DNA from: Propionibacteriaceae bacterium
GTDB lineage: Bacteria; Actinomycetota; Actinomycetes; Propionibacteriales; Propionibacteriaceae
Assembly: GCA_031256725.1 (NCBI GenBank)
Contig: JAIRQE010000021.1
Coordinates: forward strand, 120,001-152,000
Length of the DNA stretch: 32,000 nt
Direction of reading: 5' to 3'
Shown: positions 14,133 to 28,080 of the stretch, one piece after another
Position numbering within the stretch: position 1 is the first letter of the stretch
Layout of the letters: the number at the start of each line of letters is the position of its first letter
Made by a program: the position numbers and the translations under genes
Notes under the pieces: model-generated
What the model saw: the letters and a program-made list of their open reading frames with translations, nothing else
What the model was told of the DNA's origin: nothing
The model's database searches: none

Positions 14133-14549
14133 CTAGCCTTCTTCGATTAGTGCGCGCAGTTGCTCGCGCGGTGGATTGAAGACATCAATGCATACAGCGC
14201 CCGAGTCGGGACCTGTACCACCACCATGGTTCACCCATGAAGGAATGTAGACAACCTCTCCAGCCTTGATGACGCGTGTCTCTTCACCCAGGGTGAAGAT
14301 CATTTCGCCTTCAAGAACGATAGTGATCTGTTCTTCTTCGTGGGCATGGGGAGGACTCGGTGAATTCGGCTCGACCGTAATGTAATTCACGAGAAGGTTC
14401 TTACCCAAAATGGGACGCATGACAGCCCCGATAACGGGACTGAATTCTTTGGCATCTGCCCAACTTAGCCATCTTCCTGGCTCGGTTGGCGTTCCAGCAT
14501 CATCTGTAGGAACGAAGTAACTGGTGTCGTAACCATTGTCCTGGCTCAT
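14133..14549 (-). CDS. Cupin-domain protein (paralogue of 21459..21911)
   Basis: 138 aa. GGAGAG RBS upstream. Metal-binding cupin motifs are PPHAHEEEQITIVLEGE and AGEVVYIPSWVNHGG. It is collinear with the second cupin (shared blocks YFV, PILG, NYI, EPNSP, HAH.EEQI, LEGE, KAG, IP.WV.HGGGT, IDVF.PPR.QL). Confidence 0.85.
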   Translation of the reverse strand: MSQDNGYDTSYFVPTDDAGTPTEPGRWLSWADAKEFSPVIGAVMRPILGKNLLVNYITVEPNSPSPPHAHEEEQITIVLEGEMIFTLGEETRVIKAGEVVYIPSWVNHGGGTGPDSGAVCIDVFNPPREQLRALIEEG

Positions 14550-14587
14550 ATCACTCTCCGTTGGCGTGAAGCGACAAACTCGTCGCC

Positions 14588-14640
14588 TAGTAGTAATATA
14601 CTACTACTTCCATTCTAGAAACAGGGATAGTTTCTGTCAA
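14588..14640 (-). promoter_or_regulatory. Near-consensus promoter of cupin 1 plus an inverted-repeat operator at about +1
   Basis: On the minus strand: TTGACA (plus-strand coordinates 14635-14640), 17 nt, TAGAAT (14612-14617), 5 nt, then TAGTAGTA-ATA-TACTACTA (14588-14606, perfect 8-bp arms). Confidence 0.65.
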
Positions 14641-14782
14641 GGGTTTCAGGCAAAATATGAGGAATCTCAGGAAGATACCGAACGGAGGAGTCATTTCCTG
14701 ATGGAAATGACTGGTGAGCGTGTTTGGGACAGATGTACCCCACCCCTCCATCCACCTGACACGTAATTCGCTACTCAGCGAT

Positions 14783-15514
14783 TCAGCGAATACCAATGTG
14801 GAAGCGTACATTGTCGCAGCGGTGAAGGGCGTAATATGCCTCGAACCGGCTCCCATCAAAAAGCCAAGAAATCGAATCGATCCCCAAGACAGGGGTTTGA
14901 ATATCGATTTCGAGAAGGGCCGCGTCATCCTCGGAAGCGAATACTGCATCAATCCAGCGATCAGCCCCAGCAGTTTGCAAAGAGTAATTGCGTCGAAGGA
15001 TGTTGTACAAAGAGTTGTTCTCCAGGTTGAGTTTCTCAAGACCCTGTACCAATCGGGCCGGGAGTACAGCCCGAGTCAACATCCACGGAATATCATCGAC
15101 CCTTCTCAAACGAGTCAGACGTACCACTGGAGTACCCTCAGCAATCAGGAGTCGTTCAGACTCATGGGAGGTGGCCTCACCAGGTTCCTGTTCCAGAATC
15201 TGAGTGGTGACCCGACGGCCAAAGCGACGCAAATCGTCGGCTGAACCTGTGACTGATCCTATGAAGTTCACCTCAGTATGTCGAGGAGAGACATAGGTAC
15301 CCTTGCCCTTGATTGCGTACACGAGGTTCTGCTGGGTCAACTCCCTGAGGGCTTCGCGCACAACGGTACGTGAAACCCTGTAGAGGTCGCCTAACTCGGT
15401 TTCCGAGGGTAGGGACTGGTCTGGCTTCAAGCGGCCAGAACGTATGTCCTCTCGGAGTATGCACATCAACTGCAGCCATAAAGGCGCAGGGTCATCACGT
15501 CGCAGATGGCTCAT
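14783..15514 (-). CDS. GntR-family transcriptional regulator, HutC/UTRA subfamily
   Basis: The winged HTH is LPSETELGDLYRVSRTVVREALRELTQQNLVYAIKGKGTYV. The C-terminal alpha/beta domain is UTRA-like. ATG 15514 (MSHLRR..) is preferred over GTG 15526, which lacks an RBS. It is the last gene of the leftward operon. Confidence 0.85.
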   Translation of the reverse strand: MSHLRRDDPAPLWLQLMCILREDIRSGRLKPDQSLPSETELGDLYRVSRTVVREALRELTQQNLVYAIKGKGTYVSPRHTEVNFIGSVTGSADDLRRFGRRVTTQILEQEPGEATSHESERLLIAEGTPVVRLTRLRRVDDIPWMLTRAVLPARLVQGLEKLNLENNSLYNILRRNYSLQTAGADRWIDAVFASEDDAALLEIDIQTPVLGIDSISWLFDGSRFEAYYALHRCDNVRFHIGIR

Positions 15515-15547
15515 AGGCTTTCCCACTTAGAACTATCGGACCGTAGG

Positions 15548-16441
15548 CTACTGAATCCTGGAGCCTACGTCAACGCACGAACGGTACTCGTCGTAGGCAT
15601 CCTTGGGGCTAACATCATCATGAACAACCGCGCGTACTGCCTGGATCATGGCTGCAGGGTGAGCACTCTGGAAGATATTACGGCCCATGTCCACACCAGC
15701 AGCACCAGCGCCTATGGCCCGACTCGCCATCGTGAGGGCATCAAGTTCGGGGAGTTTCTTTCCGCCAGCCATGATCACCGGTACTGGGCAAGCAGCCACA
15801 ACGTGGTCGAAGTCTTCCTCGCAGTAATAGGTCTTGACGATCTGGGCCCCAAGCTCGGCGATGATTCGGGTTGCCAAACCGAGATATCGAGTGTCACGGG
15901 TCAGATCCCGTCCCACAGCTGTGACACCAAGTACGGGGATACCAACCTCCAGGCCAGCGTCAACAAGAGTTGTCAGATTGTGGACTGACCGTGACTCGTT
16001 TTCTCCACCAATGAACACCTGTACTGCCACAGCGTCGGCATTCATCCGTACCGCATCTGACATGGATAGGGCCACGTACTCATCCGAGAGCTCCTTCAAT
16101 ACCGAGGGCCCACCTGAGGCACGCAGTACCAACCCTGCTTGGGTGGCGGGGGGGATGGAGGTCCTCGCTGCTCCGCGTGTACACATCAATGCATCGACAC
16201 ATGACTCTAGGGGAGCAATATCAAGATCTATGCGCTCCAACCCCGATGTGGGGCCCTGGAAATAGCCATGATCGAAGGCCAGCATCACTGTACGGCCTGT
16301 GGATGGATTGAAAATCCGCCCGAGGCGGTTTTGCATTCCCCAGTCAAGATTGCTGGCTCCACGGATCTTATGAATGAACTGTGCGGGAGGGGTATCCGGT
16401 TGGAAACGTTTCGCAGCAGCATTACCTTCTAAATCAGCCAT
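15548..16441 (-). CDS. lsrF: LsrF-like class I aldolase/thiolase (DeoC/LacD-DhnA superfamily; 3-hydroxy-5-phosphonooxypentane-2,4-dione thiolase family)
   Basis: 297 aa. AAGGAA RBS upstream. From memory it is collinear with E. coli LsrF over its whole length: [61 protein letters not shown] (the strand carrying the Schiff-base Lys in LsrF), [11 protein letters not shown] and [11 protein letters not shown]. Confidence 0.8.
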
Positions 16442-16473: not shown

Positions 16474-18021
16474 CTACCGGCCAGAACGGGAGAGTTCCCG
16501 CAACCGGTAATAGGAATCGCGGTACTGCTCCATGTAGGGTTTGTACTGGTCGCAGGCACCCTCACGAGGTTCGACGAGTCTTTCGATACTGGTCATCTTC
16601 GCGGCTCCGGTCGCCACATCCGGGTGAATCCCAGCAGCAACTGAGGCGAGGATGGCGGAACCAAGGGTCCCGGATTCGCCCACCTTCGGAATGGCTATTG
16701 CATGGTTTGACACGTCGGCATGGGTCTGAATCCACAGTGGGCTTTTCAGTGCACCACCGCAGGCAACGATCTCGTGGATGGTATGTCCTGAGTCACGCAG
16801 TGCCTCAAAGATCGACTCTGTACCAAAGCACACAGCTTCAACCACGGCGCGGTATAAATGCGGAGCCCCATGTGCCAAGGTGAGTCCCCAGATTGCACCA
16901 CGAGACTCGGAGTCCACATGGGGGGTACGACTTCCCTGCCAGTGTTCAAGAACATGGACCCCATCAGCCCCTGGTGGAAGGCGGGCCGCTTCAGTTTCTA
17001 AACGGTGATAGATAGCCTGGTTTTCAGCATCACTTCGCATAGTGGAACCCGAGATGAGGTCACGTACCCATCGAAGAACCGATCCTGATGAGGGTTGCCC
17101 ACCCTCGACCGTATATTGTCCAGGCATGACCGCATCCGTGTAGGCCCCAAAAAGCCCACCACCATAGCTCGGAGTATCGGATTGGAGGATCTGGAGATGG
17201 GAGTTTCCTGTGATCAATGCTACCGACCCTGGCCGAATCGCATTCATGCCGATCTGGGCAACGAAGGCATCCGCTCCACCGACACCAACAGGAGTACCAG
17301 CTTCCAATCCAAGTTCTGCGGCAGCCTCAGGACATAGACCTTCACCCAGTGGAGTACCCATGTCAAGTACAGTTGAGGGCAGTTTCTCGACTAGGTCATC
17401 AAGACCGATCTGCTCGAAGAGGGATACTGGCCAGCCACCCTCATTTCGGTCATAGAAGCCTCGGATGGCGGCAGTGTTAATACTTGCTGTCCAGGTACCA
17501 GTGAGTTTGAAACCGAACCAGTCTGTGTACTCACAGACAACAGGAGAATTAGCGAAGGTCTGGAGGTCATTGTCGTGTACCCATAGTGCCTTGCAGGGCA
17601 ACCACTCAGCTGAGACTGCGCCGAATCCGGTGTACTTCAAACTTGGATGGGCTGTGGCAGCGATCTGCTTGGCTTGTGTACTAGAGCGAATATCCATCCA
17701 CAGTAGGGCGGGCCGTGCAGGGGTGCCATCATTGTCACAGAAAACCACTGTGCTACTAGTACATGCACATGAGATGCCAGCGATGTCGTGGCCAGTGATC
17801 TCCAGTTCAGTGAGTACCTGGCGGACGCAGGACACGAGTGCATTCCACCAATCATTGGGGTTTCCTTCAGCCCAGCCGGGGTGGGGATGTTGTGTGGGGT
17901 GGGCGGCGCGTGCCAGACCCACAAGCTCACCTTCAGGGGTGAAGACTGCGGCCCGAACCGCTTCGGTACCACCATCGATGCCAAGCAGGAATGGTCCAGT
18001 GCTCTGATTCTTGATTCCCAT
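16474..18021 (-). CDS. FGGY-family carbohydrate kinase (pentulose/ribulokinase-like)
   Basis: 515 aa. The N-terminal phosphate-1 motif is LLGIDGGTEAVRAAVF, followed by PGWAEGNPNDWW. The C-terminal domain has ACGGALKSPLWIQTHADV (the FGGY GGxxxS/N.W motif). It is not GlpK-like, since the DQGTTSSR motif is absent. Confidence 0.85.
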   Translation of the reverse strand: MGIKNQSTGPFLLGIDGGTEAVRAAVFTPEGELVGLARAAHPTQHPHPGWAEGNPNDWWNALVSCVRQVLTELEITGHDIAGISCACTSSTVVFCDNDGTPARPALLWMDIRSSTQAKQIAATAHPSLKYTGFGAVSAEWLPCKALWVHDNDLQTFANSPVVCEYTDWFGFKLTGTWTASINTAAIRGFYDRNEGGWPVSLFEQIGLDDLVEKLPSTVLDMGTPLGEGLCPEAAAELGLEAGTPVGVGGADAFVAQIGMNAIRPGSVALITGNSHLQILQSDTPSYGGGLFGAYTDAVMPGQYTVEGGQPSSGSVLRWVRDLISGSTMRSDAENQAIYHRLETEAARLPPGADGVHVLEHWQGSRTPHVDSESRGAIWGLTLAHGAPHLYRAVVEAVCFGTESIFEALRDSGHTIHEIVACGGALKSPLWIQTHADVSNHAIAIPKVGESGTLGSAILASVAAGIHPDVATGAAKMTSIERLVEPREGACDQYKPYMEQYRDSYYRLRELSRSGR

Positions 18022-18034: not shown

Positions 18035-19534
18035 TTAGTCCAATTCCTGGGCGGATGTCATGATCTGCCAGACGGGAGTCATGGCCAACATCACTGCATC
18101 AAAGGTGGCTGCTTGCTTCTGATAGAAATCTGAATGGGGGCCTGGTTCGAAGACATCAATGTGGTCCCCATCGAACCATCCTGAATCGCTTTGCCCAACA
18201 GCCCTGGCAACCAAGGATGCCACCCCTAGCGCGCCAAGTTCGCGATCCAGGTGTCGGTGCAACCTCTGTCGAATGATGTCCGCGAAGATCTGAGCCCATA
18301 GTGTTGACTTCATGCCCCCGCCAGCGAGTTGCCAGGCCTGGTCGGGTGCCACGAGTCCGGTTGCCACAACTCGTTCCAACTGGACTCGATGATAGTGAGC
18401 CACCCCCTCAAGGACAGCGCGTACAAGATGTCCACGGGTGTGGAAGGAGGAAGCGCCCACAAAGGTACCCGAGGCTGGCTCAGTGGTCCCAGACCCGTTC
18501 ACAAAGGGCAAGAAAATCAGGCCATCTGCTCCAGGTGGTACCTTGTCAGCTTCGGCTAGGAGAGTTGAGATTGTCTGGGGTTCTTCGGGTGTACCTAGGG
18601 CCCCACATAACCAATCAATATTGGTTACTGAGGCAGGGGAAACCTCCATGCACAGCATCTGGGTGGGGTCTGGGAGTAGGGCAACCATACCGACGGCAGG
18701 TGGGGGGCCTGAAGGACCAATCACTGCATTGATCGCCCAGGTACCCGCAATGACGGTGACCTCGCCAGGGTTTCGTGTGCCTGTACCAAGTGCGGAAGCT
18801 ATGCAATCCATACACCCAGCGATGACTGGAAGCCCCTCAGGTAATCCAGTGAACTCAGCCACTGTAGTGAGTACACCACCTACTAGATCCCCAGACGGGT
18901 GCAGGGATGGTACGAAATCTTGGGCATCAACCAGCCCAAAAGCCTCGAAAGGTATCCTGCTCAGTTTGCGTGAGCGAAGGTTAAGAATTCCACAGGCACT
19001 GGCATCCGAATAGTCGGTACTTGCAACACCAGTTAGGCTGGCAAGGATCCAGTCCTTGCAGCACAGGACCCAGCGGATGCGAGAGTACACCTCCGGCTGC
19101 TCATCACGAATCCAGCGAAGTAGGGGGAGTGGCTGGGCGGCCCAAGGCCTTGATCCGGTGGCCTCATGGATTTCTTTTTGGAGATCCTCAGGAATCCTGC
19201 TGGCATATCCGAGGGCGCGCCCATCTGAGGAAGCGATTCCGGGGGCAACGGGTACAAGGTTCTCATCAACGAGGTACAATCCATTCCCATGGCCTGTGAC
19301 ACCCAGTCCAGCGATCTGGTAACCCAAAGAGCCAACCTTAGTAACCACATCACGCAGAATCAACAGGACTCTGTGTGCCAACTCCTCCATGTCGACTTCA
19401 TGGATCAGGGAGGAGACGATGGATCGTGGAGTGGCCAACCCACAACTGGTGAGTTGGTGACCATTGCTATCGAAGGCTGAAGCCTTGATCCGCGAAAGCC
19501 CGAGATCAATCCCGATATAACACAGGTCAGTCAT
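18035..19534 (-). CDS. FGGY-family carbohydrate kinase (second, divergent; LyxK/xylulokinase-like)
   Basis: ATG 19534 overlaps the upstream TGA by 1 nt, with GGAGG 6 nt upstream. Motifs: YIGIDLGLSRIKASAF, VIAGTWAIN and LAGGGMKSTLWAQIFADI. Confidence 0.8.
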   Translation of the reverse strand: MTDLCYIGIDLGLSRIKASAFDSNGHQLTSCGLATPRSIVSSLIHEVDMEELAHRVLLILRDVVTKVGSLGYQIAGLGVTGHGNGLYLVDENLVPVAPGIASSDGRALGYASRIPEDLQKEIHEATGSRPWAAQPLPLLRWIRDEQPEVYSRIRWVLCCKDWILASLTGVASTDYSDASACGILNLRSRKLSRIPFEAFGLVDAQDFVPSLHPSGDLVGGVLTTVAEFTGLPEGLPVIAGCMDCIASALGTGTRNPGEVTVIAGTWAINAVIGPSGPPPAVGMVALLPDPTQMLCMEVSPASVTNIDWLCGALGTPEEPQTISTLLAEADKVPPGADGLIFLPFVNGSGTTEPASGTFVGASSFHTRGHLVRAVLEGVAHYHRVQLERVVATGLVAPDQAWQLAGGGMKSTLWAQIFADIIRQRLHRHLDRELGALGVASLVARAVGQSDSGWFDGDHIDVFEPGPHSDFYQKQAATFDAVMLAMTPVWQIMTSAQELD

Positions 19535-21141
19535 CACTCACCTCCTGGATCCTTAGGTTCATCGCTGGAAGAATCTGGCAGGCCATGTACCAGGGCAACC
19601 TCATTGCGGAAGGCCTGTACCTCGTGGTCAACGTGTGTGGAATCCCAGCCTAGGAGTGCAGCCATCGTTGTGGCTGCCAGATTGATGATCCGATCCTTGG
19701 GGGTTGCACCCAGTCTGTGCGGGATGCGACGCAACATGAGATCAGCCAGGGTTGTGGTGTTTTCTTCTTGAACGGCCAGGGTGACTTCAGCGGCGAGTAC
19801 CTGATCGTCCGGGTCTTTCAATATCGAGATGGGTGTGGTGGGCAACAGGTCAAGTACCCTTTGTGCGCGAATGCCATAGATGTGCAGAAGCTGGGTAGTA
19901 ACCTCGGCTGACAAGGGGGAATCGTTTAGGAACTGACGCTTGTACTCATTCCAGTCGGCGGAGTTTGCACCAGGGAGGCAACGTTGCCGAGTAGGGCTGG
20001 GATGCTTGGGAAGGCCAAGGATGGTACGAGCTTTGGCCACGGTATCCTCTCCAAGGGCACGTTGGGTGGTGAGTTTGCCACCAATAATCGTGACCAATCC
20101 GGGATAGGTGGGCCCATGGTCAAGGATCGAGTGGTCTCGGCTGATCGTGGAGTTCCTGGAAACATCTCCAACATAAGGCAGGGGGCGAACGCCTGAATAG
20201 GCGTAAAGGACGTTGTCGGTCGACAGTTTTGCGTCCGGGAAGACTCGATTGGCCTCAGCGAGGAGGTAGGTGATCTCATTGGAGTCTATGCGGACCTCGT
20301 CAAGATCTCCGTCATAGGTGATATCCGTACTTCCGAGGATGTACCACCCATTCCAGGGCAAAACGAAAACAGGTCGACCATCTTGGGCTGCCTCAAAGAA
20401 GAGTCCAATGGTGGGGGCTCCCTCAAAGGGAGCGAGAACGAGGTGACTGCCTTTGGTACCTCCGCTGAGTCTGGGGGATTCGATCTTTCCTGTGAGAAAC
20501 TCATCAATCCATGGGCCAGTGACGTTGATGGTGAGTGTGGCTTCCAGGTTGCAGGTGGTTCCCGTAGTATCCACATAGGTGACTCCCCTCACACGATTTC
20601 CTTTGGTGAGGAAGCCGGTCACTTCGGTGTGGGTGAGGATCTGTGCCCCCATGCTTTGGGCATCCAGCATGAGTTCTACACATAAACGCTGGGGCCATAC
20701 GATTTGGGCATCGTGGAATATCACTCCGCCACGTAGTCCCCGTGTTGCGATCCCTGGTACCGCGGTGGTGATCTTTCTCACCGACATCCCATTGCTACGA
20801 TGGGTACGCGACATGACATCATGGAGAAGAGCCCCGCAGCGAATGAGAGCTCCTGGCCGACGTGATCCTTTGAAAAATGGAACAAGCATGGGGTATTCGA
20901 TGGTGAGATGGGGTGCATCCCTCATGAGTCGCCGCTTTTCATTGATGGACTCTTGGACTAGGGAAAACTCCAGATTTTCGAGGTACTTGATTCCGCAATG
21001 AATGAGATGGCTTGAGGCACTAGTAACCCCACTGGCGATGTCATTGCGTTCTAAAAGAACCACATCTAGACCATGGCTGGCTGCTTCGCGCGCAATGGCG
21101 AGTCCGTTTACTCCGCCTCCAATGATGGCAATGTCAACCAT
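19534..21141 (-). CDS. FAD-dependent glycerol-3-phosphate dehydrogenase-like oxidoreductase (GlpD/EryB family)
   Basis: ATG 21141 (MVDIAIIGGGVNG) has GGAGG 5 nt upstream; the ORF-track start at GTG 21168 has none. From memory it is collinear with GlpD: GVTSASSHLIHCGIKYLE, NVTGPW, KGSH, GSTD, YSGVRPL and GGKLTTQR, plus the C-terminal helical domain. Confidence 0.85.
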   Translation of the reverse strand: MVDIAIIGGGVNGLAIAREAASHGLDVVLLERNDIASGVTSASSHLIHCGIKYLENLEFSLVQESINEKRRLMRDAPHLTIEYPMLVPFFKGSRRPGALIRCGALLHDVMSRTHRSNGMSVRKITTAVPGIATRGLRGGVIFHDAQIVWPQRLCVELMLDAQSMGAQILTHTEVTGFLTKGNRVRGVTYVDTTGTTCNLEATLTINVTGPWIDEFLTGKIESPRLSGGTKGSHLVLAPFEGAPTIGLFFEAAQDGRPVFVLPWNGWYILGSTDITYDGDLDEVRIDSNEITYLLAEANRVFPDAKLSTDNVLYAYSGVRPLPYVGDVSRNSTISRDHSILDHGPTYPGLVTIIGGKLTTQRALGEDTVAKARTILGLPKHPSPTRQRCLPGANSADWNEYKRQFLNDSPLSAEVTTQLLHIYGIRAQRVLDLLPTTPISILKDPDDQVLAAEVTLAVQEENTTTLADLMLRRIPHRLGATPKDRIINLAATTMAALLGWDSTHVDHEVQAFRNEVALVHGLPDSSSDEPKDPGGE

Positions 21142-21218
21142 TAAAGCCTCCACGTCCTTGTTCGGCACCTTGACTAGGCAGGGGACCGAACCTCAGTACC
21201 CGTGATCTATCCCGATCA

Positions 21219-21363: not shown

Positions 21364-21414
21364 TTGACCTCCTGGCCTATCACGACTAGTATACTACCAC
21401 CTGTTACTACAGGT
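21364..21414 (+). promoter_or_regulatory. Candidate promoter of the rightward cupin-TRAP operon with two operators
   Basis: TTGACC (21364-21369), 17 nt, then TAGTAT (21387-21392). The -10 box is part of the 10-bp perfect palindrome TAGTATACTA (21387-21396). Six nt after the -10 comes ACCTGTtactACAGGT (21399-21414). An AGGAGAG RBS precedes ATG 21459. Confidence 0.65.
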
Positions 21415-21458: not shown

Positions 21459-21911
21459 ATGACACAATCAGACGCCGTATGGCAGGCAGATGAAGGTTTT
21501 GATTCAGAAAAAGGCTGGGACCCCACGTATTTCGTCGAGCCAGATGAAATGGGAGTACCAACCAAACCTGGTCGTTTTACTAGTGTCCATGAGGTAAAGT
21601 CCTTCATGCCCGTTGAAGGGGCGGTTTTCCATCCCATCCTCGGTGAAGACATGTTGCTGAACTACATCGTCAGTGAACCGAATTCGCCCTTGACGATTCA
21701 CGCACATGCTGAAGAGCAGATCTTCATCTGTCTCGAAGGCGAGATCGAATTCGTTGTAGGCGATGAGAAGCGCATGCTGAAGGCAGGCGATGTAGCTGTG
21801 ATACCACCGTGGGTGCCGCATGGAGGCGGAACTCGCGACAAGGGAATGATCGGCATTGACGTTTTCTCTCCACCAAGAAAGCAACTCAAGGAATTCGTGG
21901 AGAGCGAATGA
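21459..21911 (+). CDS. Cupin-domain protein (paralogue of 14133..14549)
   Basis: 150 aa. Cupin motifs are IHAHAEEQIFICLEGE and AGDVAVIPPWVPHGG. It is the first gene of the rightward operon. Confidence 0.85.
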   Translation: MTQSDAVWQADEGFDSEKGWDPTYFVEPDEMGVPTKPGRFTSVHEVKSFMPVEGAVFHPILGEDMLLNYIVSEPNSPLTIHAHAEEQIFICLEGEIEFVVGDEKRMLKAGDVAVIPPWVPHGGGTRDKGMIGIDVFSPPRKQLKEFVESE

Positions 21912-22030: not shown

Positions 22031-23122
22031 ATGACAACTGGAAAAAACCAATTCGGTTCGAAGAAGAAGGTTCTTCGTGCCCTTATTGCTACCGTTGGCT
22101 GTGCAGCACTAGCCATGGGTGGCTACGGCTGTACTCAGGCTCAACCAGATCCTGACGAAGTCAAAGTTATCGAGATCAAGGTCTCACATAACCAAAGCGA
22201 AACCCACTACCAGACCAAGTGGCTCGAAGAAGTGGCAAAGCGTGTGGAAGAGAAGACCAATGGTCAAGTTAAGCTCACGATCTACTCCAGCTCCCAGCTG
22301 GGTACCATCGAGGATCTCATTGATCAAGCCCTCGCAGGTTCTGATGTGATGACCCTTCACAACTGGGCACAGGCAGCCACCTTGGGTGGAGTACCAAACA
22401 TTGCTGCCATCTCAGCGATGTACACCTTCACTGCTCCTGAAGGTCAGAGTGGTCCTGGAGCCATCTATCCGCTCATTCAGAAGCTTCTAGACTCTGATTT
22501 GTTCGCTGGTTGGAAGGCCGAACTCGCAGACAATGGGTTCATCCTTGTTACCGCTAACTGGTACATGGGCGAGCGCCATATCTACACCGACAATCCCAAT
22601 GGGCATCCAACTCCTGAGGATCTCAAGGGAATCGCACTTCGTGTACCTGGTGGTGTGACATGGCAGGCGTACTTCAAAGAGACTCCAGCCACTATCGTGA
22701 CCATGGATGGCTCGGAAGTTTATACCGCAATGCAGCAGGGTACCCTCAACGGTGCTGAAGGTCCCTTCGCGCAGACCCTTGGCTGGTCGCTGCATGAGTT
22801 GACGAAGTCAGTAACACTGACCGGACATGGTAATGACACCCAGGGCTTCATGCTCGGTGAGAAGACATGGAACAAGCTGTCTGAAGAGCAGCAGAAGATC
22901 CTCGTTGAAGCCTTCGTATGGGGCGGCGATGAGTACACCAAGGAAACCATTGCCAATGTTGAGGCTGACCAGAAGAAGTTTGAGGACCTAGGTATCCCGA
23001 TCTACGAAGCAGATCGTGACGCTTATCGTGCTTTGTCTGACTTGGCCTATACATCAGCAGCTTTCCCTGAGTGGGATCCGGACGTTCGTCAACAGATCCG
23101 CGAAGTTACAGGTCAGAGCTGA
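22031..23122 (+). CDS. dctP: TRAP transporter substrate-binding protein (DctP family), probably lipid-anchored or secreted
   Basis: 363 aa. AAGGA RBS upstream. The signal peptide ends in a lipobox-like AMGGYGC. DctP-type pattern: IKVSHNQSETHYQ.., GQVKLTIYSSSQLG, then NWYMGERHIYT and DLKGIALRVPGG. The Arg in GERH sits where DctP-family proteins carry the carboxylate-binding Arg (from memory). Confidence 0.85.
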   Translation: MTTGKNQFGSKKKVLRALIATVGCAALAMGGYGCTQAQPDPDEVKVIEIKVSHNQSETHYQTKWLEEVAKRVEEKTNGQVKLTIYSSSQLGTIEDLIDQALAGSDVMTLHNWAQAATLGGVPNIAAISAMYTFTAPEGQSGPGAIYPLIQKLLDSDLFAGWKAELADNGFILVTANWYMGERHIYTDNPNGHPTPEDLKGIALRVPGGVTWQAYFKETPATIVTMDGSEVYTAMQQGTLNGAEGPFAQTLGWSLHELTKSVTLTGHGNDTQGFMLGEKTWNKLSEEQQKILVEAFVWGGDEYTKETIANVEADQKKFEDLGIPIYEADRDAYRALSDLAYTSAAFPEWDPDVRQQIREVTGQS

Positions 23123-23171: not shown

Positions 23172-23301
23172 GCTGCCGCCGCCGCATCAAGGGTTGTACT
23201 ACAACCCAGATACTGAATAAGTTGGGATTCAGTGAGGCATACTGAATTGTTTCGAAGGACAGGAAATGCAACGATCAGAATCTGATGCGGCGGCGGGCAG
23301 C
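23172..23301 (+). other. Structured dctP-dctQ intercistronic RNA: a long-range 18-bp stem enclosing the dctQ RBS and start, with internal alternative hairpins
   Basis: gctgccgccgccgcatca (23172-23189) pairs with tgatgcggcggcgggcagc (23283-23301), with one bulged G. Inside the loop are gggttgt-act-acaaccc (23191-23207) and ACTGAAT (23212-18) / ATTCAGT (23227-33) / ACTGAAT (23241-47). Confidence 0.5.
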
Positions 23302-23910
23302 ATTAAAAAATCGCCCGCCAGACGAATACTAGACATCTTTTTCAGTCTCCCAGCGAATTTCGCAGCCATACTCCTGTGTGGTGTGATGGTACTCCTTGCG
23401 ATAGGAGTATTCGCTCGGTACTTCGCCAGGATGAGTCTGACCTATGTTCATGAGATAACCCTCTTATCTGCAGTATGGGTAGCGTTCTTGGGTGCAGCCG
23501 AAGGCATAAGAAATCACTACCACGTACGAATCGATGTTCTCACATCGAAACTGCCGAAACTGGGCCAAATAATCGTCGAAATTGTGGTGACCACGGTTTT
23601 GACTGTCGCCGTGGGAGCCCTGACCTACATGGGGTATAGGGTACTCATCGAGTCATCCTCAATCCTGGAGGGGCTCAATATCTCACGAAAGCCACTGATC
23701 GCAGCAATGCCGGTGGGTTTCACCTTCATGACCTATTTCATGGTCAAGAACGTCTATGAACTTGTCAAGGGTCTGCGTGCCCACTCATATGATCTGCCCA
23801 TCTATGAGCCAGAGGTAGTCGAGGGAGATGAGGACGAGGAAGAAGCCTTCGCCCGTCTCTATGTCGATCCTGACAATGCCGACCCAGAAAAGAAGGAGAT
23901 GGAATCATGA
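23266..23910 (+). CDS. dctQ: TRAP transporter small permease (DctQ family) with an acidic C-terminal extension
   Basis: 214 aa with four hydrophobic helices. Its position between dctP and dctM is typical. The stop overlaps the dctM start (ATGA). The unusual tail is ..YEPEVVEGDEDEEEAFARLYVDPDNADPEKKEMES. Confidence 0.8.
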   Translation: MQRSESDAAAGSIKKSPARRILDIFFSLPANFAAILLCGVMVLLAIGVFARYFARMSLTYVHEITLLSAVWVAFLGAAEGIRNHYHVRIDVLTSKLPKLGQIIVEIVVTTVLTVAVGALTYMGYRVLIESSSILEGLNISRKPLIAAMPVGFTFMTYFMVKNVYELVKGLRAHSYDLPIYEPEVVEGDEDEEEAFARLYVDPDNADPEKKEMES

Positions 23911-25193
23911 TCGGTATCACCTGGATGTTGATCATCTTCTTTGCACTACTACTTCTCAGGGCCCCCATTAGTGTTGCCCTATGTACCTCAGCGATGGTGT
24001 ACTTCCTTCTCTCGGGGCAGCCCTTTGAGTTTGTTGCCCAAAGGATCGTTGCCGGTGTGGATTCCTTCCCACTTATGGCTATTCCCTTATTTGTCTTAGC
24101 GGGTACTGCGATGGCCCGCGGAGGAATAGCGAGCGCCAACCTGGAGTTTGCTGACACTCTCGTGGGTCACTGGCGCGGTGGCCTGGCTCAGGTCAATGTC
24201 TTGAATAGCGTCTTCATGGGCGGAATGACTGGATCAGCGGTGGCAGATGCTGCCACTGATGCGAAGGTCTTGGTACCCGTCATGATCCGCAAAGGCTACT
24301 CCAATGAGTTCTCCTCGGCTTTGAGTGCCGCATCGGGGATCATCGCCCCACTCATTCCTCCAGGAATCGGTTTAGTACTCTATGCCCTGACTGTTCAAGA
24401 GTCAGTAGGGCGACTCTTCCTAGGTTCACTGATCCCAGCATTACTGATTGCTCTAGTCATGAGTGTGACAGTGAACCTTGTTGCTCGACATCGGGGATTC
24501 AGGTCTGACCGTACTCGTCGCGCACGAGGAAAAGAGATCTGGAAGGCCTTTATAAGGGCTCTGCCAGCCCTTGGTATGCCCTTCTTGTTGATCGTCGGTT
24601 TGCGCATGGGAATGTTCACGCCCACTGAATTGGCAGCGCTAGCAGCCGCCTACTCCCTGATCGTGGGGGCCTTCATCTATCGCAAGATCAACTTCAAGAA
24701 CCTTCCCGCGATCTTCCGTGAGGCTGTTGTGGCCAGCGGTATGGTCATGCTCCTCATTGGCGGTGGTGCAGCATTCGGTAATGCCATGATCCGTGAACGG
24801 GTACCTCAAAAGGTAGCTGGGTTGCTTACATCATTATCCGACAATTGGATGGTCATTCTGATCATTATCAATGTGCTCCTGCTGATTCTTGGCATGATCA
24901 TGGATGGTTCCATGCTGATTATTATGCTGGCCCCCCTCCTCGCAGTGGCGACAGCTCAGTTGGGCATCGATCCGATTCACTTCGGGGTACTCATGGTGAT
25001 CAACATCACTATCGGAGGTATTACTCCGCCGGCAGGAGTGGTGCTACTCTCTGTGGTTGGTATCACAAAAGCACCGATGGGCAAATCCTTCATGGAGATG
25101 GTGCCATTCCTGATCGGGAGTATCGGAGTGCTCTTCCTTGTCTCATTCGTCCCAGACATCATTCTGTGGCTACCCAATCTCATCATGGGCTAA
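23907..25193 (+). CDS. dctM: TRAP transporter large permease (DctM family)
   Basis: 428 aa with about 12 TM helices and typical DctM length and composition (..FPLMAIPLFVLAG.., ..GGITPPAGVVL..). Confidence 0.9.
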   Translation: MIGITWMLIIFFALLLLRAPISVALCTSAMVYFLLSGQPFEFVAQRIVAGVDSFPLMAIPLFVLAGTAMARGGIASANLEFADTLVGHWRGGLAQVNVLNSVFMGGMTGSAVADAATDAKVLVPVMIRKGYSNEFSSALSAASGIIAPLIPPGIGLVLYALTVQESVGRLFLGSLIPALLIALVMSVTVNLVARHRGFRSDRTRRARGKEIWKAFIRALPALGMPFLLIVGLRMGMFTPTELAALAAAYSLIVGAFIYRKINFKNLPAIFREAVVASGMVMLLIGGGAAFGNAMIRERVPQKVAGLLTSLSDNWMVILIIINVLLLILGMIMDGSMLIIMLAPLLAVATAQLGIDPIHFGVLMVINITIGGITPPAGVVLLSVVGITKAPMGKSFMEMVPFLIGSIGVLFLVSFVPDIILWLPNLIMG

Positions 25194-25273
25194 CGAGCCC
25201 ACGGGGAACAATCGCATATGAGCAACAGGGCTCATAGCGACACAACTATATAACTGAAGAAGTGGAGAGATTA

Positions 25274-26041
25274 ATGAATAGAAAGTTTCGTAACAAGGTA
25301 CGTTCCCGTGAATTCCTTCTCGGTACATGGGCAACCACCTCGGATCCGGCCATGATGGAAGCCATGGGTCAATCTGACCTGGAGTTCATCATCATCGACG
25401 CCGAGCATGGGCCGTACTCACCCGAAACCCTGCAAACCTGCTTGATGGCACTCACCCCCTATCCAGTCGGTGTTTTCGTGAGAGTCGGCAGTCTTGAGCC
25501 CATCGACCTCATGAGGCCATTGGACATGGGTGCTGATGGCATCATCATCCCGCGCGTCAACAGCGCTGAGGAAGTCGAGCACATCGTGCGTTGGACACGG
25601 TACCCACCGATCGGCGTGCGTGGGTACGGGCCCCGCCGGGCTGCCAGCTATTGCCGTTTCGAAAAGGAGTACGTTGCCGCAAGCGAGGATCACATCGCGA
25701 TCGTACCCATGGTCGAAACCGCTGGTGCTGCCAAGGAATTGGAAAAGATGGCAGCAGTACCAGGCATCGATGGTCTCCTAGTCGGACGCAATGACCTGTC
25801 AGGTTCCATTGGTCTCGAATGGCAGCCGACTCATCCAACTGTCATGGGTATCGTCGAGAGGGTCGTCAAGGCTTGTGCCGATAACGGTATCGCTTCTGGT
25901 ATTGCCTCGGGATATACCCATGAGAACGTTCGAGTCTGGGACGAGATGGGTCTAACCATGGTCGCCGCTGGCTTGGACTATGAATGGATGAAGATCGCTG
26001 CTGATGATCTTGCCTCCTATGAGCGTCTTCCACGGGGATAA
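25274..26041 (+). CDS. HpcH/HpaI-family (class II, divalent-metal) 2-keto-3-deoxy-acid aldolase
   Basis: ATG 25274 with GGAGAG 4 nt upstream. Motifs: GTWATTSDPAMMEAMG, FIIIDAEHGP, VFVRV, PLDMGADGIIIPRVNSAEE, RYPPIGVRGYG, VPMVET and LLVGRNDLS. Confidence 0.85.
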   Translation: MNRKFRNKVRSREFLLGTWATTSDPAMMEAMGQSDLEFIIIDAEHGPYSPETLQTCLMALTPYPVGVFVRVGSLEPIDLMRPLDMGADGIIIPRVNSAEEVEHIVRWTRYPPIGVRGYGPRRAASYCRFEKEYVAASEDHIAIVPMVETAGAAKELEKMAAVPGIDGLLVGRNDLSGSIGLEWQPTHPTVMGIVERVVKACADNGIASGIASGYTHENVRVWDEMGLTMVAAGLDYEWMKIAADDLASYERLPRG

Positions 26042-26044
26042 ATA

Positions 26045-27088
26045 ATGAAAGCGATTGTCTACCTCGGTGACGGTAAGTACGAACTCCAGGAGATTCCCAC
26101 ACCAACTCCGGGGCCTGGTGAGGTACTCGTCAGAGTTGATGCGAACACCATCTGTGGCACAGATCTGAGGATCGTGGCGGGTGCGAAGAAAAAGGGAGTC
26201 TATCCACCTGTGGTTTTAGGTCATGAACTTGCCGGCACCGTGGTAGAGGTCGGCCCAGGATTTGACCGACTGCAGGTCGATGATCGGGTCGGCATGACAC
26301 CCAGTATCACCTGTGGTTGGTGTGATTCATGCCAGCGTGGATGGTTCAACCTGTGCGCCAATGTACTGGTTCTTGGCCATAGTGTTCACGGTGGTCTGGC
26401 AGAGTACTTCCTGGCTCCAGCGCAAGCAATGAACAATGGGGGTTTGGTACGAGCATCCTCAGATCTGCTTCCAGAAGAGATTGCGCTTACTGAGCCCCTG
26501 TCGTGTGTACTCCATGCTCATCGACTTCTTGGGACTGGCCTAGGTGAAACTGTTGTGGTGATCGGTGGGGGCCCGATTGGGCAGCTTCATGCCCAGCTTG
26601 CGCGTAGTTTGGGAGCACGTCAGGTGATCATGAGTGAACCCGTGGAGTCCCGTCGCGATCTTGCCCTCAAACTTGGTACAAACATCGTGGTTGATCCTAT
26701 CCGAGAGGACCTCGTCTCGATGGTTGCTGAAGCTACTGGCGGTCTCGGAGCTGACGTGGTCATCGTGTGTACAGGAGTACCAGACCTGGTAGCTCCAGCC
26801 GTAGAGGTCGCTCGTCCACGCGGAAGAATATCACTGTTTGCGGGGTTCCCAGCTGGCATGATGGCAGGTATTGATCCCAATGCCATTCATTACCGTGAGT
26901 TAATCGTCACTGGTAGTTCCAATTCCACTGCTGAGGAGTACACCATGGCTTTGGATCTCATTGCTCAGCGGCAGATCGATGTACTCTCCCTTGTGAGCCA
27001 CCGATTCTGTCTCGATAACTTCGCTGAGGCAGTAGCCACGGCTGCTGATCTCAACACGATGAAAGTGGCAGTAAAACCGTCATCCTGA
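26045..27088 (+). CDS. Zn-dependent medium-chain alcohol/polyol dehydrogenase (sorbitol/threonine dehydrogenase-like)
   Basis: Catalytic zinc motifs are CGTDLR and GHELAGTVVEVG. The structural-zinc cluster is CGWCDSCQRGWFNLC. The Rossmann motif is VIGGGPIG. Confidence 0.9.
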   Translation: MKAIVYLGDGKYELQEIPTPTPGPGEVLVRVDANTICGTDLRIVAGAKKKGVYPPVVLGHELAGTVVEVGPGFDRLQVDDRVGMTPSITCGWCDSCQRGWFNLCANVLVLGHSVHGGLAEYFLAPAQAMNNGGLVRASSDLLPEEIALTEPLSCVLHAHRLLGTGLGETVVVIGGGPIGQLHAQLARSLGARQVIMSEPVESRRDLALKLGTNIVVDPIREDLVSMVAEATGGLGADVVIVCTGVPDLVAPAVEVARPRGRISLFAGFPAGMMAGIDPNAIHYRELIVTGSSNSTAEEYTMALDLIAQRQIDVLSLVSHRFCLDNFAEAVATAADLNTMKVAVKPSS

Positions 27089-27129
27089 TCCTGCGACTTC
27101 GCGCAGAAACCTCAACAAAGGAGGGGGTA

Positions 27130-28080
27130 ATGTCCCTGCAGAATCTTGACCAATGGCGTAAAACTGTCGATGAGCAGTTTGCGCAACTCAAAGCCGAGCA
27201 CCCCGAAAAGCTCGAACGCCGGATCGATATGTCCTGGTCGAACTGGGGTTTCGGTCTGGAATCCCTAGCAGTCACCGCTGAACGTTTAGCCAAAGCCGGA
27301 TTGGAGTACATCGAACTCCATGGCAACCATTACGGCCCCGATCTTGGGTACAAAGTGGACGAGGCCAGAAGAATACTCGCAGACAACGGACTGAAACTCT
27401 CAGGGGTCTGTGGCATGTTTTCCACCGAATCTGAGTTCTCCTCCACCTCACATGCGACCCGCCAACGTGCCATTGACTACACCCGACGTGAGGTCGAGTT
27501 TTGCGCAGAATTGGGTGGTGAGTACCTCCTCCTCGTGCCAGGTGCCGTAGGTCGCCCGGATGCTTATGACAATTCAGAATGGTACCGCTCCACTCAGGCG
27601 CTAGGTATAGTCGCTGATGCGCTGACAGATGCTGGGATCAAGGGTGCGATCGAACCCATCCGCGCTGCCGAGGTTTCCCTAGTACACACTGTTGCAGAGG
27701 CAGTGGCCTATATTGACGATGTCGGGCATCCAGGTGTACAACACATCAATGGGGACGTGTACCACATGCAGGTTGAGGAGGTGAACATCCCTCTCGCGAT
27801 CATTGAAGCAGGGGATCGCCTCACGAACCTTCATCTCGCCGACTCGAATCGACGTGGTCTCGGTTGGGGCTCCCTTGATGTCGACACCCTGATCAAGGCG
27901 CTCTATGTAATCGGCTATAACACCCCAGGCCATTATGTGACTCCCGAACCGCTTGGTCCTGGTGCAGGCCCGTACCCTGCTATGCATTCACTCCAGGATC
28001 CAGCCATGTTGGATGAGCTTGTCTTTGGCACCGTCACCTACTGGAGACAACGTGAGGAAGCTGTTCTGGACAACGCATAG
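27130..28080 (+). CDS. Sugar or sugar-phosphate isomerase/epimerase, xylose-isomerase-like TIM barrel (AP endonuclease 2 fold)
   Basis: AGGAGGG RBS upstream. Candidate metal ligands have the spacing typical of this fold: IEP.., INGDVYHM and NLHLADSNR. The size (316 aa) is comparable with EryC, SgbU and ketose 3-epimerases. Confidence 0.7.
   Translation: MSLQNLDQWRKTVDEQFAQLKAEHPEKLERRIDMSWSNWGFGLESLAVTAERLAKAGLEYIELHGNHYGPDLGYKVDEARRILADNGLKLSGVCGMFSTESEFSSTSHATRQRAIDYTRREVEFCAELGGEYLLLVPGAVGRPDAYDNSEWYRSTQALGIVADALTDAGIKGAIEPIRAAEVSLVHTVAEAVAYIDDVGHPGVQHINGDVYHMQVEEVNIPLAIIEAGDRLTNLHLADSNRRGLGWGSLDVDTLIKALYVIGYNTPGHYVTPEPLGPGAGPYPAMHSLQDPAMLDELVFGTVTYWRQREEAVLDNA

Follow-up and report, generated by a model that had tools for sequence, protein, structure and literature searches.

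Two modules under one presumed regulator

Which compound is degraded by the divergent gene cluster at positions 14133-28080 of the DNA analysed here, and do its two operons encode one pathway or two? The window, meaning the whole analysed stretch of 32 kb, belongs to the genome of an uncultured Propionibacteriaceae bacterium. An NCBI metagenome-assembled genome (MAG; 240-kb contig) encodes counterparts of its GlpD-like, DctP and HpcH proteins with 100% identity, and a search for near-identical DNA in plasmids gave no match. Each gene in the span was assigned to a family by an open reading frame (ORF) map and by Pfam and NCBIfam scans. A Logan contig identical to the left arm, L081, supplied independent gene calls.

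We interpret the cluster as one catabolic regulon under a HutC-type GntR repressor, built from two separable modules, a reading whose chances we consider even. Module A would be a short route ending in dihydroxyacetone phosphate (DHAP), module B would split an imported acid, and a shared intermediate or inducer would link them. As a whole, the pathway probably takes up an organic acid or sugar and yields pyruvate and a triose phosphate of glycolysis from it, with the help of a relative of the enzyme that breaks down the quorum signal autoinducer-2. An earlier note on this DNA had described a single supercluster. This stands for one regulon but not for an indivisible block, the cluster being a fusion of two modules that also occur apart. 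The argument starts from the observed gene families, the modular recurrence, the shared operator with its position and the membership of the lyase in the LsrF family. The reactions, their order, the link from module B to module A and the substrate, as well as the enzyme activities and ligands of the window proteins, are predictions from sequence alone.

All 13 genes of the earlier note were recovered by the ORF map, Pfam and NCBIfam in the order and with the families given there. Module A is encoded on the minus strand and comprises a GlpD/EryB-like flavin adenine dinucleotide (FAD) dehydrogenase (19534-21168, Pfam DAO+DAO_C), the xylulokinase-like sugar kinase FGGY2 (18035-19537, Pfam FGGY), an LsrF-family class I (Schiff-base) lyase/thiolase of the DeoC fold (15548-16441, Pfam DeoC/LsrF, NCBIfam LsrF) and a HutC-type GntR/UTRA regulator, the last gene of the leftward operon (14783-15526, Pfam GntR+UTRA). 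The ribulokinase/pentulose-kinase-like sugar kinase FGGY1 (16474-18021, minus strand, Pfam FGGY_N and FGGY_C) is an extra gene. The junctions of this operon were reproduced on L081 as previously described, with a 1-nt overlap between the GlpD-like gene and FGGY2 and gaps of 13 nt (FGGY2/FGGY1), 32 nt (FGGY1/LsrF-like) and 33 nt (LsrF-like/GntR).

Module B is encoded mainly on the plus strand, where cupinB (21459-21911, Pfam Cupin_2) is the first gene of the rightward operon. It is followed by a tripartite ATP-independent periplasmic (TRAP) transporter consisting of DctP (22031-23122, with a Gram-positive lipoprotein-type N-terminus), DctQ (23266-23910) and DctM (23907-25193), each assigned by the Pfam family of that name. 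An HpcH/HpaI-family class II pyruvate aldolase (25262-26041, Pfam HpcH_HpaI), a Zn-dependent medium-chain dehydrogenase of the threonine/sorbitol dehydrogenase type (26045-27088, Pfam ADH_N and ADH_zinc_N) and a xylose-isomerase-like TIM barrel (27130-28080, Pfam AP_endonuc_2) complete the operon. Two genes on the minus strand, cupinA (14133-14549, Pfam Cupin_2) and a displaced short-chain dehydrogenase/reductase (SDR; 11001-11882, Pfam adh_short), also belong to this module.

Control region, operator and regulator

As the earlier note had it, the two operons diverge from a control region of about 290 bp, which measures 290 nt from the GTG start of the GlpD-like gene at 21168 and 317 nt from the ATG at 21141. 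The ATG has a GGAGG ribosome-binding site, agrees with the 535-aa NCBI call and is the probable true start. An exact 16-bp palindrome, ACCTGTnnnnACAGGT, has only two exact matches in the window, both in this control region. Read on the minus strand, the leftward promoter is TTGACG-18-TACTCT, and operator 1 (ACCTGTCATTACAGGT, 21219-21234) comes 6 nt after its -10 box. The rightward promoter-like site on the plus strand is TTGACC-17-TAGTAT (21364-21392); here operator 2 (ACCTGTTACTACAGGT, 21399-21414) again comes 6 nt after the -10 box, and site and operator together span 21364-21414. The promoters of both operons are thus mirror images carrying the same operator at the same distance from the -10 box. 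A site just downstream of the -10 box is the classical position of a repressor.

The GntR/UTRA protein, for which an alternative call of 243 aa covers 14783-15514, is the only regulator of this kind in the window and is encoded in the module A operon. It shows the features of the HutC subfamily of GntR regulators, namely a GntR helix-turn-helix with a UTRA domain and a predicted palindromic operator at its own and at target promoters. It is presumed to be the repressor acting on ACCTGTnnnnACAGGT. The protein is 66% and 63% identical to the regulators of two contigs carrying module B only (L087 and L178), and 63% and 55% identical to those of two loci carrying module A only (L082, from Thermobispora, and L177). 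Compared with one another, the regulators from loci with A only, B only or both modules share 63-69% identity, and a B-only regulator is 69% identical to that of the A-only Thermobispora locus. For a neighbouring HutC-type regulator, from another LsrF cluster, the figure is only 29%.

The operator recurs with the regulator. Exact copies of ACCTGTnnnnACAGGT were found only in the window (two), L082, L087, L176, L177 and L178, with no exact match in the approximately 1.6 Mb of other fetched loci scanned. The 16-mer of operator 1 is identical in the intergenic regions between the genes for GntR and the solute-binding protein in L176 and L177, and copies with one mismatch lie beside the GntR genes of L080, L083 and L084/85. 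Every locus with module A or module B has the same operator next to its regulator gene, and position and conservation hold across ten loci. In L087, operator copies are found within the first 50 nt of the contig.

It is mainly because the same regulator and the same operator occur across A-only, B-only and A+B loci that both arms are read as one regulon. The earlier view of the divergent operons as one co-regulated unit is upheld by the same predicted operator at the same position in both arms, and by the same operator with an orthologous regulator beside each half elsewhere. A Zn-dehydrogenase 43% identical to that of the window, encoded beside a GlpD-like/FGGY/aldolase cluster in Rubrobacter, also speaks for it. 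The sharing of regulator and operator suggests that the modules respond to the same or a very similar inducer in other organisms.

Alternatively, two unrelated loci could lie back to back, the shared palindrome being coincidental or serving autoregulation of the left operon only. Each module does occur alone elsewhere, module B has its own cupin and transporter, and a second regulator (GntR/FCD) and a second type of palindrome are present near module B genes. Against such a juxtaposition, the two exact 16-bp copies are confined to the divergent control region, each 6 nt past a -10 box, the B-only contigs share the operator and a regulator 69% identical to the A-only one of Thermobispora, and the only such regulator of the window is encoded in the module A operon. 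We consider two unrelated loci improbable.

The second type of palindrome, TAGTA...TACTA, was observed at 12610-12625 (N6, just upstream of the start of the GntR/FCD gene), at 14588-14606 (TAGTAGTAATATACTACTA) and at 21387-21396. At 14588-14606 it stands just after the -10 box of the promoter-like site of cupinA (TTGACA-17-TAGAAT, together 14588-14640, minus strand), and at 21387-21396 it overlaps the -10 box of cupinB. It may be a candidate site of the FCD-type regulator. We did not adopt it as a defined second regulator site, as its spacing varies from site to site (0 nt, 3 or 9 nt, and 6 nt).

Distribution and parts of module B

Module B was found by itself on L087 and L178, two short metagenome contigs from organisms of higher GC content. 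Both carry, in one direction, genes for GntR/UTRA, cupin, DctPQM, HpcH aldolase, Zn-dehydrogenase and SDR, and no module A genes are present on either contig. Their DctP, DctM, HpcH and Zn-dehydrogenase proteins are 57-74% identical to those of the window, and DctQ is 41-46% identical. The SDR encoded at 11001-11882 of the window is 59% identical over 272 aa to the SDR directly after the Zn-dehydrogenase in the TRAP operon of L087, and it is the probable orthologue of the module B SDR. Because of this match the functional unit extends to the left of 14133, and the span 14133-28080 given for the cluster in the earlier note is incomplete. The TIM barrel is not present in L087; it stands outside the conserved module B and is an accessory gene.

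The two cupins had been called paralogous, in agreement with their 54% identity. CupinA is 58% identical to the cupin of L087 and 65% identical to that of L178, and this similarity makes it orthologous to the cupin whose gene comes after GntR in the module B loci elsewhere. In the window it begins 233 nt past GntR and has the promoter-like site of its own described above. Both cupins match only cupin families in Pfam, which leaves a proposed relationship to small beta-barrel proteins of the YiaL type without support there. The best solved homologue of cupinB is 4e2g, of unknown function, followed by the isomerase BacB. Processing of uronates by the cupins in the manner of KdgF or KduI was considered possible and not adopted, the similarity to KdgF being weak (E ~5e-5).

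DctP, DctQ and DctM all score below the cutoffs of the YiaMNO models. The conservation of the arginine that binds carboxylates in TRAP binding proteins, claimed before, was borne out: R204, within LKGIALRVPGG (R-x-P motif), aligns with an arginine in five of the five best solved homologues. By itself, this arginine is no proof of a carboxylate ligand. The aldolase matches the HpcH_HpaI domain of Pfam with 107 bits and is 67-68% identical to the aldolases of L087 and L178. It scores below all NCBIfam equivalog cutoffs (all below half the cutoff), with GarL as the best model (156 vs 393 bits). The Zn-dehydrogenase is 68% identical to the L087 enzyme. Among solved structures, the TIM barrel matches ketose, allulose and L-ribulose 3-epimerases best (E ~1e-22), and it reaches 88 bits against the psicose 3-epimerase model, whose cutoff is 300.

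Module B is rare. Relatives of DctP are limited to five hits at E<=1e-40, and HpcH has only four other relatives at E<=1e-50. A metagenome scan seeded on HpcH returned only relatives of at most 36% identity. Distant relatives of HpcH (50-52%) lie in other clusters resembling sugar acid loci, with TIM barrels and 2-hydroxyacid dehydrogenases and no module A genes, and distant DctP relatives (40-42%) are linked to unrelated pathways.

Distribution and parts of module A

Module A is a common actinobacterial operon with an ATP-binding cassette (ABC) transporter and one kinase. The nearest relatives of the GlpD-like protein (50-52% identity) are encoded in Thermobispora, Microbispora, Nonomuraea, Streptomyces, Micromonospora and others. 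In every one of these whose contig was fetched the operon has the same order: GntR/UTRA and, divergently, a Peripla_BP_4 binding protein, an ABC ATPase, two permeases, LsrF-like, GlpD-like and FGGY. The module was found in Thermobispora, Microbispora, two metagenome contigs, Peterkaempfera and Georgenia. In Microbacterium sp. Yaish 1, tblastn located GntR, LsrF-like, GlpD-like and FGGY2-like genes, the transporter genes being unannotated. The transporter is of the CUT2 ABC type. The Thermobispora binding protein (L082:4394-5506) is the protein solved as PDB 4pe6, deposited as "putative ABC transporter"; a literature search found no paper mentioning PDB 4pe6. The ligand pocket of this structure could show which substrate module A uses.

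Elsewhere the operons contain a single kinase, of the FGGY2 type, and are free of cupin, TIM barrel and HpcH genes. In L080 and L082-L085 the GlpD-like gene is followed by a kinase gene whose product shares 49-55% identity with FGGY2; FGGY2 itself scores 208 bits against the XylB model (cutoff 380). The best NCBIfam models of FGGY1 are ribulokinase (292 bits, cutoff 428) and FGGY pentulose kinase (271 bits, cutoff 409). With 25% identity the two kinases of the window are distant from each other, and FGGY1 was not found in the other module A operons fetched (L080, L082-L085, L176, L177). FGGY2 is the core kinase of the module and FGGY1 an accessory one. A second phosphorylation before cleavage, suggested in the earlier note, finds no support in the conserved core, since FGGY1 is missing from these operons.

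The GlpD-like protein has the domain architecture PF01266 + PF16901 (DAO + DAO_C) and stays below the GlpD equivalog cutoffs (293 vs 360 and 265 vs 352 bits). The adjacent kinases score 149 and 85 bits against the GlpK model, whose cutoff is 590. Plain glycerol utilisation, with an FGGY protein as GlpK and the GlpD-like protein as GlpD, was rejected, as both fall far below the cutoffs and such a pathway would need neither a lyase of the LsrF type nor a sugar ABC transporter.

Plasmids of Shinella and Rubrobacter encode a 40%-identical GlpD-like protein and an FGGY kinase together with an unrelated DHAP-forming lyase, a class II fructose bisphosphate (FBP) aldolase. The Rubrobacter cluster adjoins a Zn-dehydrogenase gene whose product is 43% identical to that of the window. 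Both plasmids, pcSHIWSC3 of Shinella (L174) and that of Rubrobacter indicoceani (L175), also carry acetoin-dehydrogenase-like E1 alpha/beta, a lipoyl protein, E2 and a CUT2 ABC transporter.

A polyol route is close to the main idea of the earlier note. After phosphorylation of a tetritol, pentitol or hexitol, the GlpD-like enzyme would oxidise the product to a ketose 1-phosphate, FGGY1 of the window would optionally phosphorylate this again, and the LsrF-like enzyme, as an ordinary class I aldolase, would cleave it to DHAP and an aldehyde or glyceraldehyde 3-phosphate. The pair of FGGY kinase and GlpD-like dehydrogenase is the logic of glycerol catabolism and, reportedly, of erythritol catabolism in Brucella. 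The plasmid clusters use a class II FBP-type aldolase, with two FGGY kinases in Shinella, the Zn-dehydrogenase resembles sorbitol dehydrogenases and the TIM barrel ketose 3-epimerases, and CUT2 ABC binding proteins often bind polyols. Nevertheless, we regard a polyol as an unlikely substrate: the LsrF family keeps LsrF-specific residues and not those of FBP aldolases, the conserved core has one kinase only, the by-products formaldehyde or glycolaldehyde would need enzymes not encoded in the operons, and the TRAP arginine points to an acid.

The LsrF-family lyase and its relatives

The lyase gene had been described as LsrF-like in the sense of a generic class I aldolase. Its product is better read as a true LsrF-family lyase, because it scores 449 bits against the NCBIfam LsrF equivalog NF006081 (cutoff 297) and retains the active site completely. 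It is approximately 60% identical to E. coli LsrF, whose active site is lined by Asp57, His58, Lys203, Tyr205, Gly226, Gly227, Asp251, Met252, Gly253 and Arg254 (PMC2728841). In that enzyme Lys203 forms the Schiff base, Asp57 is the general base, Asp251 is specific to LsrF, and His58, Gly226, Gly227, Gly253 and Arg254 bind the phosphate (PMC2728841). Ten of the ten residues are kept in the window protein and likewise in each of the 86 relatives that were aligned. The enzyme is predicted to catalyse the DHAP-releasing step.

A genome scan seeded on the LsrF-like protein gave 80 loci from many phyla, with 59-81% identity. The earlier note had treated the gene set as potentially conserved; the whole set is present in none of the 80 loci, and modules A and B recur separately, which argues for the modular view. 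About 12 loci are true lsr clusters with homologues of LsrK, LsrB and LsrR. About 18, mostly from Microbacteriaceae, encode GntR/UTRA, a D-2-hydroxyacid dehydrogenase, an LsrK-like FGGY kinase and LsrF. The dehydrogenase of this second group is closest to phosphoglycerate dehydrogenase and PdxB (SerA-like, dependent on nicotinamide adenine dinucleotide, NAD), and the kinase, with 450 bits, is just under the LsrK cutoff of 528. Few loci are of the GlpD type, and many have none of these neighbours. Overall, no LsrK-, LsrB- or LsrR-type neighbours were found in 66 of the 80 loci.

The clusters with 2-hydroxyacid dehydrogenase are L001:6074-14521, L002-L014, L022, L024, L032 and L078, and the Microbacteriaceae members add a cupin and a CUT1 ABC system. 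In a neighbour-joining tree of LsrF the genomic contexts are interspersed, and the window protein is sister (81% identity) to the Microbacteriaceae group with 2-hydroxyacid dehydrogenase and not to the GlpD group of Thermobispora. A homologue of E. coli LsrG was missing from all 80 loci, even where LsrK, LsrB and LsrR are clearly represented. A Cupin_2 gene adjoins LsrF in 35 of the 80, and a cupin may replace LsrG as the isomerase of phosphorylated 4,5-dihydroxy-2,3-pentanedione (DPD) outside enterics. The cupins of the window were not accepted as relatives of the cupin beside LsrF in other clusters, their similarity being at superfamily level only.

Two loci combine LsrF with further families. 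L027, a 15-kb contig of an alphaproteobacterial MAG, encodes LsrK (772 bits, cutoff 528), cupin, LsrF, Aldolase_II, RbsD/FucU, FGGY2-like and GlpD-like proteins, and also a DUF1537 kinase, an L-threonate-dehydrogenase-like protein, SDR, SMP-30 lactonase and CUT2 ABC proteins. In Actinotalea lenta (L021:6685-11541), the gene for GntR/UTRA is followed in turn by those for a fusion of class II aldolase and SDR that is bifunctional (881 bits, above its cutoff), a cupin, LsrF and a separate class II aldolase. This last aldolase is closest to 3-oxo-tetronate 4-phosphate decarboxylase (138 bits, below cutoff), and there is no kinase hit within 8 kb of LsrF.

Beside an FGGY kinase three combinations were found: GlpD-like with LsrF-like, SerA-like and cupin with LsrF-like (Microbacteriaceae), and GlpD-like with class II FBP-type aldolase (plasmids). 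GlpD acts beside a phosphate ester, and LsrF and FBP aldolases act on a ketone beside CH2-O-phosphate and release DHAP; hence these clusters point to a common logic of phosphorylation, oxidation and cleavage. Judged by family chemistry, phosphorylation of a CH2OH group, oxidation of the adjacent CHOH and release of DHAP would be the common denominator of the three clusters. On this basis we tentatively propose, as a possibility short of an even chance, that LsrF is less a quorum-quenching enzyme than the DHAP-releasing terminal lyase of widespread carbohydrate or acid-sugar routes in Actinomycetota and many other phyla, fed by varied enzymes, with the autoinducer-2 (AI-2) pathway as one specialised branch and the window as a fusion of such a route with a rare TRAP/pyruvate-aldolase module. 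The 2-oxo-1-phosphate intermediate would be supplied by a GlpD-like FAD dehydrogenase, by a SerA-like NAD dehydrogenase with a cupin, or by LsrK with a cupin or LsrG.

The conservation of the LsrF active site also bears on how near module A is to AI-2 processing. Module A might make 3-hydroxy-2,4-pentanedione 5-phosphate (P-HPD) by a route that bypasses LsrG: a 1-deoxy-pentulose, for example 1-deoxy-xylulose or reduced DPD (DPD being the precursor of AI-2), would be phosphorylated at C5, the GlpD-like enzyme would oxidise C4 to give P-HPD, and LsrF would transfer the acetyl group to coenzyme A (CoA), leaving DHAP and acetyl-CoA. The score above the equivalog cutoff and the ten retained residues, including the LsrF-specific Asp251, fit this scheme, as do the mingling, in the tree, of GlpD-type LsrFs with those of true lsr clusters and the presence in L027 of LsrK, cupin and LsrF next to genes of the FGGY2-like and GlpD-like types. 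No dedicated enzymes would be required to process the products further, and FGGY2 is xylulokinase-like; E. coli xylulokinase also phosphorylates 1-deoxy-xylulose. Still, a 1-deoxy-ketose is judged an unlikely substrate. Free 1-deoxy-pentuloses are not known to be abundant nutrients, oxidation of 1-deoxy-xylulose 5-phosphate would drain an essential precursor, TRAP, HpcH and the dehydrogenases are left without a role, and no LsrB-type binding protein was found in the L081 copy of the left arm.

A canonical Lsr system for uptake and destruction of AI-2 has in its favour only the LsrF-like score above the equivalog cutoff. No LsrB, LsrG or LsrR was detected on L081 by tblastn with the E. coli Lsr proteins, and Pfam and NCBIfam assigned none in the span, the right-arm genes belonging to other families. 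FGGY1 and FGGY2 score 183 and 131 bits against the LsrK model (cutoff 528), and the transporter is TRAP and not LsrACDB. Such a system is very hard to credit here.

The sister position of the window LsrF to clusters with D-2-hydroxyacid dehydrogenase is one of the observations that make a sugar acid a candidate substrate of module A. From a C4 or C5 sugar acid (such as erythronate, threonate or a pentonate), the kinase would make the omega-phosphate, which the GlpD-like enzyme would turn into a 3-oxo (or 4-oxo) acid phosphate. The LsrF-like enzyme would then decarboxylate the beta-keto acid, or cleave it as an aldol, to DHAP and CO2 or glyoxylate, in a non-homologous replacement of the kinase and decarboxylase steps of OtnK/OtnC or DtnK/PdxA2. 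The same reaction logic is established with other enzyme families (PMC12994016). The partner dehydrogenase of the sister group (81% identity) belongs to the D-2-hydroxyacid family, the clusters closest to the window LsrF (L001-L014) hold a cupin that could move a 2-oxo to a 3-oxo group, and the GlpD-type operons, which would make the 3-oxo group directly, have no cupin. In the more distant clusters L022, L024, L032 and L078 no cupin hit was obtained. In L027, the LsrF, GlpD-like and FGGY2-like genes adjoin the DUF1537 kinase and the L-threonate-dehydrogenase-like gene, and in the window the TRAP binding protein keeps its conserved arginine. We nonetheless see this version as doubtful. The ABC binding-protein family of module A binds mostly neutral sugars, FGGY2 is closest to xylulokinase and not gluconokinase, the tetronate-like genes of L027 are all below NCBIfam cutoffs, and HpcH and the TIM barrel are left without a role. 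Moreover, we know of no LsrF-family decarboxylase.

Proposed pathway

In the regulon of two modules that we prefer, FGGY2 would phosphorylate the terminal CH2OH of the substrate. The FAD enzyme would then oxidise the carbinol beside the phosphate ester, in the manner of GlpD on glycerol-3-phosphate and EryB on erythritol phosphate, and would so yield the ketone that the Schiff-base lysine of LsrF requires. The LsrF-family enzyme would cut a C-C bond to give DHAP and a small second product, which would be acyl-CoA if a second keto group is present (as in P-HPD), CO2 in the case of a carboxylate and an aldehyde in the case of a polyol. For a methyl ketone, the intermediate would be P-HPD and the products DHAP and acetyl-CoA, with a 1-deoxy-pentulose or reduced DPD as substrate.

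Module B would import an organic acid, adjust it by oxidation or reduction and isomerisation, and split it to pyruvate and an aldehyde. As no dehydratase is part of module B, its substrate would either be a 2-keto-3-deoxy acid already, or be oxidised to a 2-keto acid and cleaved to hydroxypyruvate. The fragment from module B, a neutral one in the link that we prefer, would serve as shared intermediate and inducer and be consumed by module A; other actinomycetes would import the same fragment with the ABC transporter. A shared intermediate is the most economical link because orthologous regulators and the same operator control both modules elsewhere, and this sharing of regulator and operator is the whole basis on which we prefer a feeding of A by B.

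Several observations weigh against this reading. Module A elsewhere has one kinase and neither cupin, TIM barrel nor HpcH, so that the modules could serve different, merely related compounds. CUT2 ABC proteins usually bind neutral sugars, whereas the TRAP arginine is typical of carboxylate binders; the two transporters therefore probably import different molecules. HpcH aldolases normally need a 2-keto-3-deoxy acid, and none of the genes encodes a dehydratase. The identical active-site residues of LsrF neither prove nor exclude a change of substrate. Finally, L087 (1-256) and L178 (1-58) start just upstream of GntR, and the region beyond is out of view.

With regard to the substrate, an acid is favoured by the TRAP arginine, the 2-hydroxyacid dehydrogenase of the sister clusters, and the DUF1537 and threonate-dehydrogenase-like genes of L027 (below cutoffs). 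The strict conservation of LsrF and the bona fide LsrK in the L027 cluster favour an AI-2-like compound. A neutral sugar or polyol is favoured by the CUT2 ABC transporter, the xylulokinase-like FGGY2, the sorbitol-dehydrogenase-like Zn enzyme and the ketose-3-epimerase-like TIM barrel. The interpretation of the earlier note is thus partly supported: the cluster reads as one uncharacterised regulon, but as a common and a rare module fused, with incomplete coordinates.

Neighbouring genes

A regulator with GntR and FCD domains (11864-12607, minus strand, Pfam GntR+FCD) is encoded upstream of the SDR in the same direction, and its membership in the system is uncertain. Between this pair and cupinA lies a gene for a major facilitator superfamily (MFS) transporter (12856-14058, plus strand, Pfam MFS_1). 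It has no counterpart in L087 or L178 and is probably an unrelated insertion or an auxiliary transporter. Directly to the left of the SDR, the stretch 7563-10975 (plus strand) encodes a PfkB sugar kinase, an N-acylglucosamine 2-epimerase-family protein and a 380-aa protein without Pfam hit, and may be a further sugar module of the same island. In the stretch 2000-5216, a part of low GC content (0.43-0.45 over 2001-4000 vs approximately 0.54 elsewhere) precedes three ORFs without Pfam hit (198, 304 and 414 aa); these ORFs are located between the genes for an alpha-amylase and an M13 peptidase.

Significance

The cluster is built wholly from known enzyme families, and what is apparently unrecognised is a catabolic role of LsrF. 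If the interpretation is true, the LsrF family would gain a wider role in catabolism, and the label of AI-2 thiolase on every member is probably misleading for the 66 of 80 loci described above. It would also add a new short route into glycolysis, consisting of kinase, FAD dehydrogenase and Schiff-base lyase and conserved in soil and compost actinomycetes. The conserved operator and repressor, the solved binding protein PDB 4pe6 and the rare TRAP binding protein offer testable handles, and the identity of a ligand may assign a catabolic pathway to an orphan sugar acid or deoxy sugar.

Comparison with known systems

The full-text literature, with most subscription journals aside, contained no characterised equivalent of the gene set, as the earlier note had supposed. 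In the same texts no LsrF homologue was described outside AI-2 processing, and, since subscription journals were mostly uncovered, a published characterisation is possible. The set is likewise incomplete for the erythritol (Ery), Lsr and yiaK-S/sgb pathways, as had been stated, key families of each not being returned by the Pfam and NCBIfam scans.

The Lsr pathway of E. coli and Salmonella consists of the kinase LsrK, the isomerase LsrG and the thiolase LsrF, which converts P-HPD and CoA to DHAP and acetyl-CoA. The window shares with it LsrF at family level, an upstream FGGY kinase and DHAP as predicted end product. In contrast to Lsr, the window is without LsrG, LsrB, LsrACD and LsrR, an FAD dehydrogenase stands in the place of the isomerase, and the regulator is a HutC-type GntR. 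Uptake also differs, being of the TRAP type in the window and by a non-LsrB ABC transporter in module A elsewhere.

The Ery pathway of Brucella and Rhizobium consists of the FGGY kinase EryA, the GlpD-like dehydrogenase EryB, the TIM-barrel racemase EryC and the isomerases TpiA2 and RpiB, with EryD as regulator. Similar to this pathway, module A would phosphorylate its substrate and then oxidise the neighbouring carbinol with an FAD enzyme; the FGGY and DAO+DAO_C families are shared, and a TIM barrel is nearby. The match of the kinase/dehydrogenase pair is at family level only, EryA and EryB having been compared by family and not by sequence. However, the TIM barrel of the window is in the other operon and resembles ketose 3-epimerases, and C-C cleavage to DHAP is proposed here instead of isomerisation to erythrose 4-phosphate. 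No triose-phosphate-isomerase, RpiB or SorC/DeoR-type regulator family was found by Pfam and NCBIfam among the genes of 11-30 kb.

The tetronate pathways (LtnD/DenD, OtnI, OtnK, OtnC; DtnK/PdxA2; Ltn3D) offer a similar possible chemistry, from sugar acid to omega-phosphate, 3-oxo acid phosphate and DHAP with CO2, and often use TRAP or ABC uptake. This reaction logic is established for other enzyme families, including Ltn3D (PMC12994016). Unlike these pathways, the window has no DUF1537 kinase, class II aldolase-type decarboxylase or PdxA2, and its TIM barrel scores 25 bits against the OtnI model (cutoff 325).

The yiaK-S/sgb system for 2,3-diketo-L-gulonate also unites TRAP transporter, FGGY kinase and xylose-isomerase-like TIM barrel in one locus. 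It differs from the window, which reaches 26 bits with the YiaM model (cutoff 260) and 237 bits with the YiaN model (cutoff 800). Moreover, neither a YiaK-, SgbH- or SgbE-type family nor an orotidine monophosphate decarboxylase or class II aldolase family was found in the span by Pfam and NCBIfam.

In KdgR-type regulons, a shared intermediate induces several uptake and catabolic modules. The window would resemble them in having one repressor and one operator motif before separable modules that would converge on one intermediate, but its regulator is a HutC-type GntR and not of the IclR type. In its logic the cluster is akin to Lsr, Ery, yiaK-S and the tetronate pathways and is a member of none of them; only its assignments to the LsrF family, the TRAP transporters and the HutC-type regulators hold.

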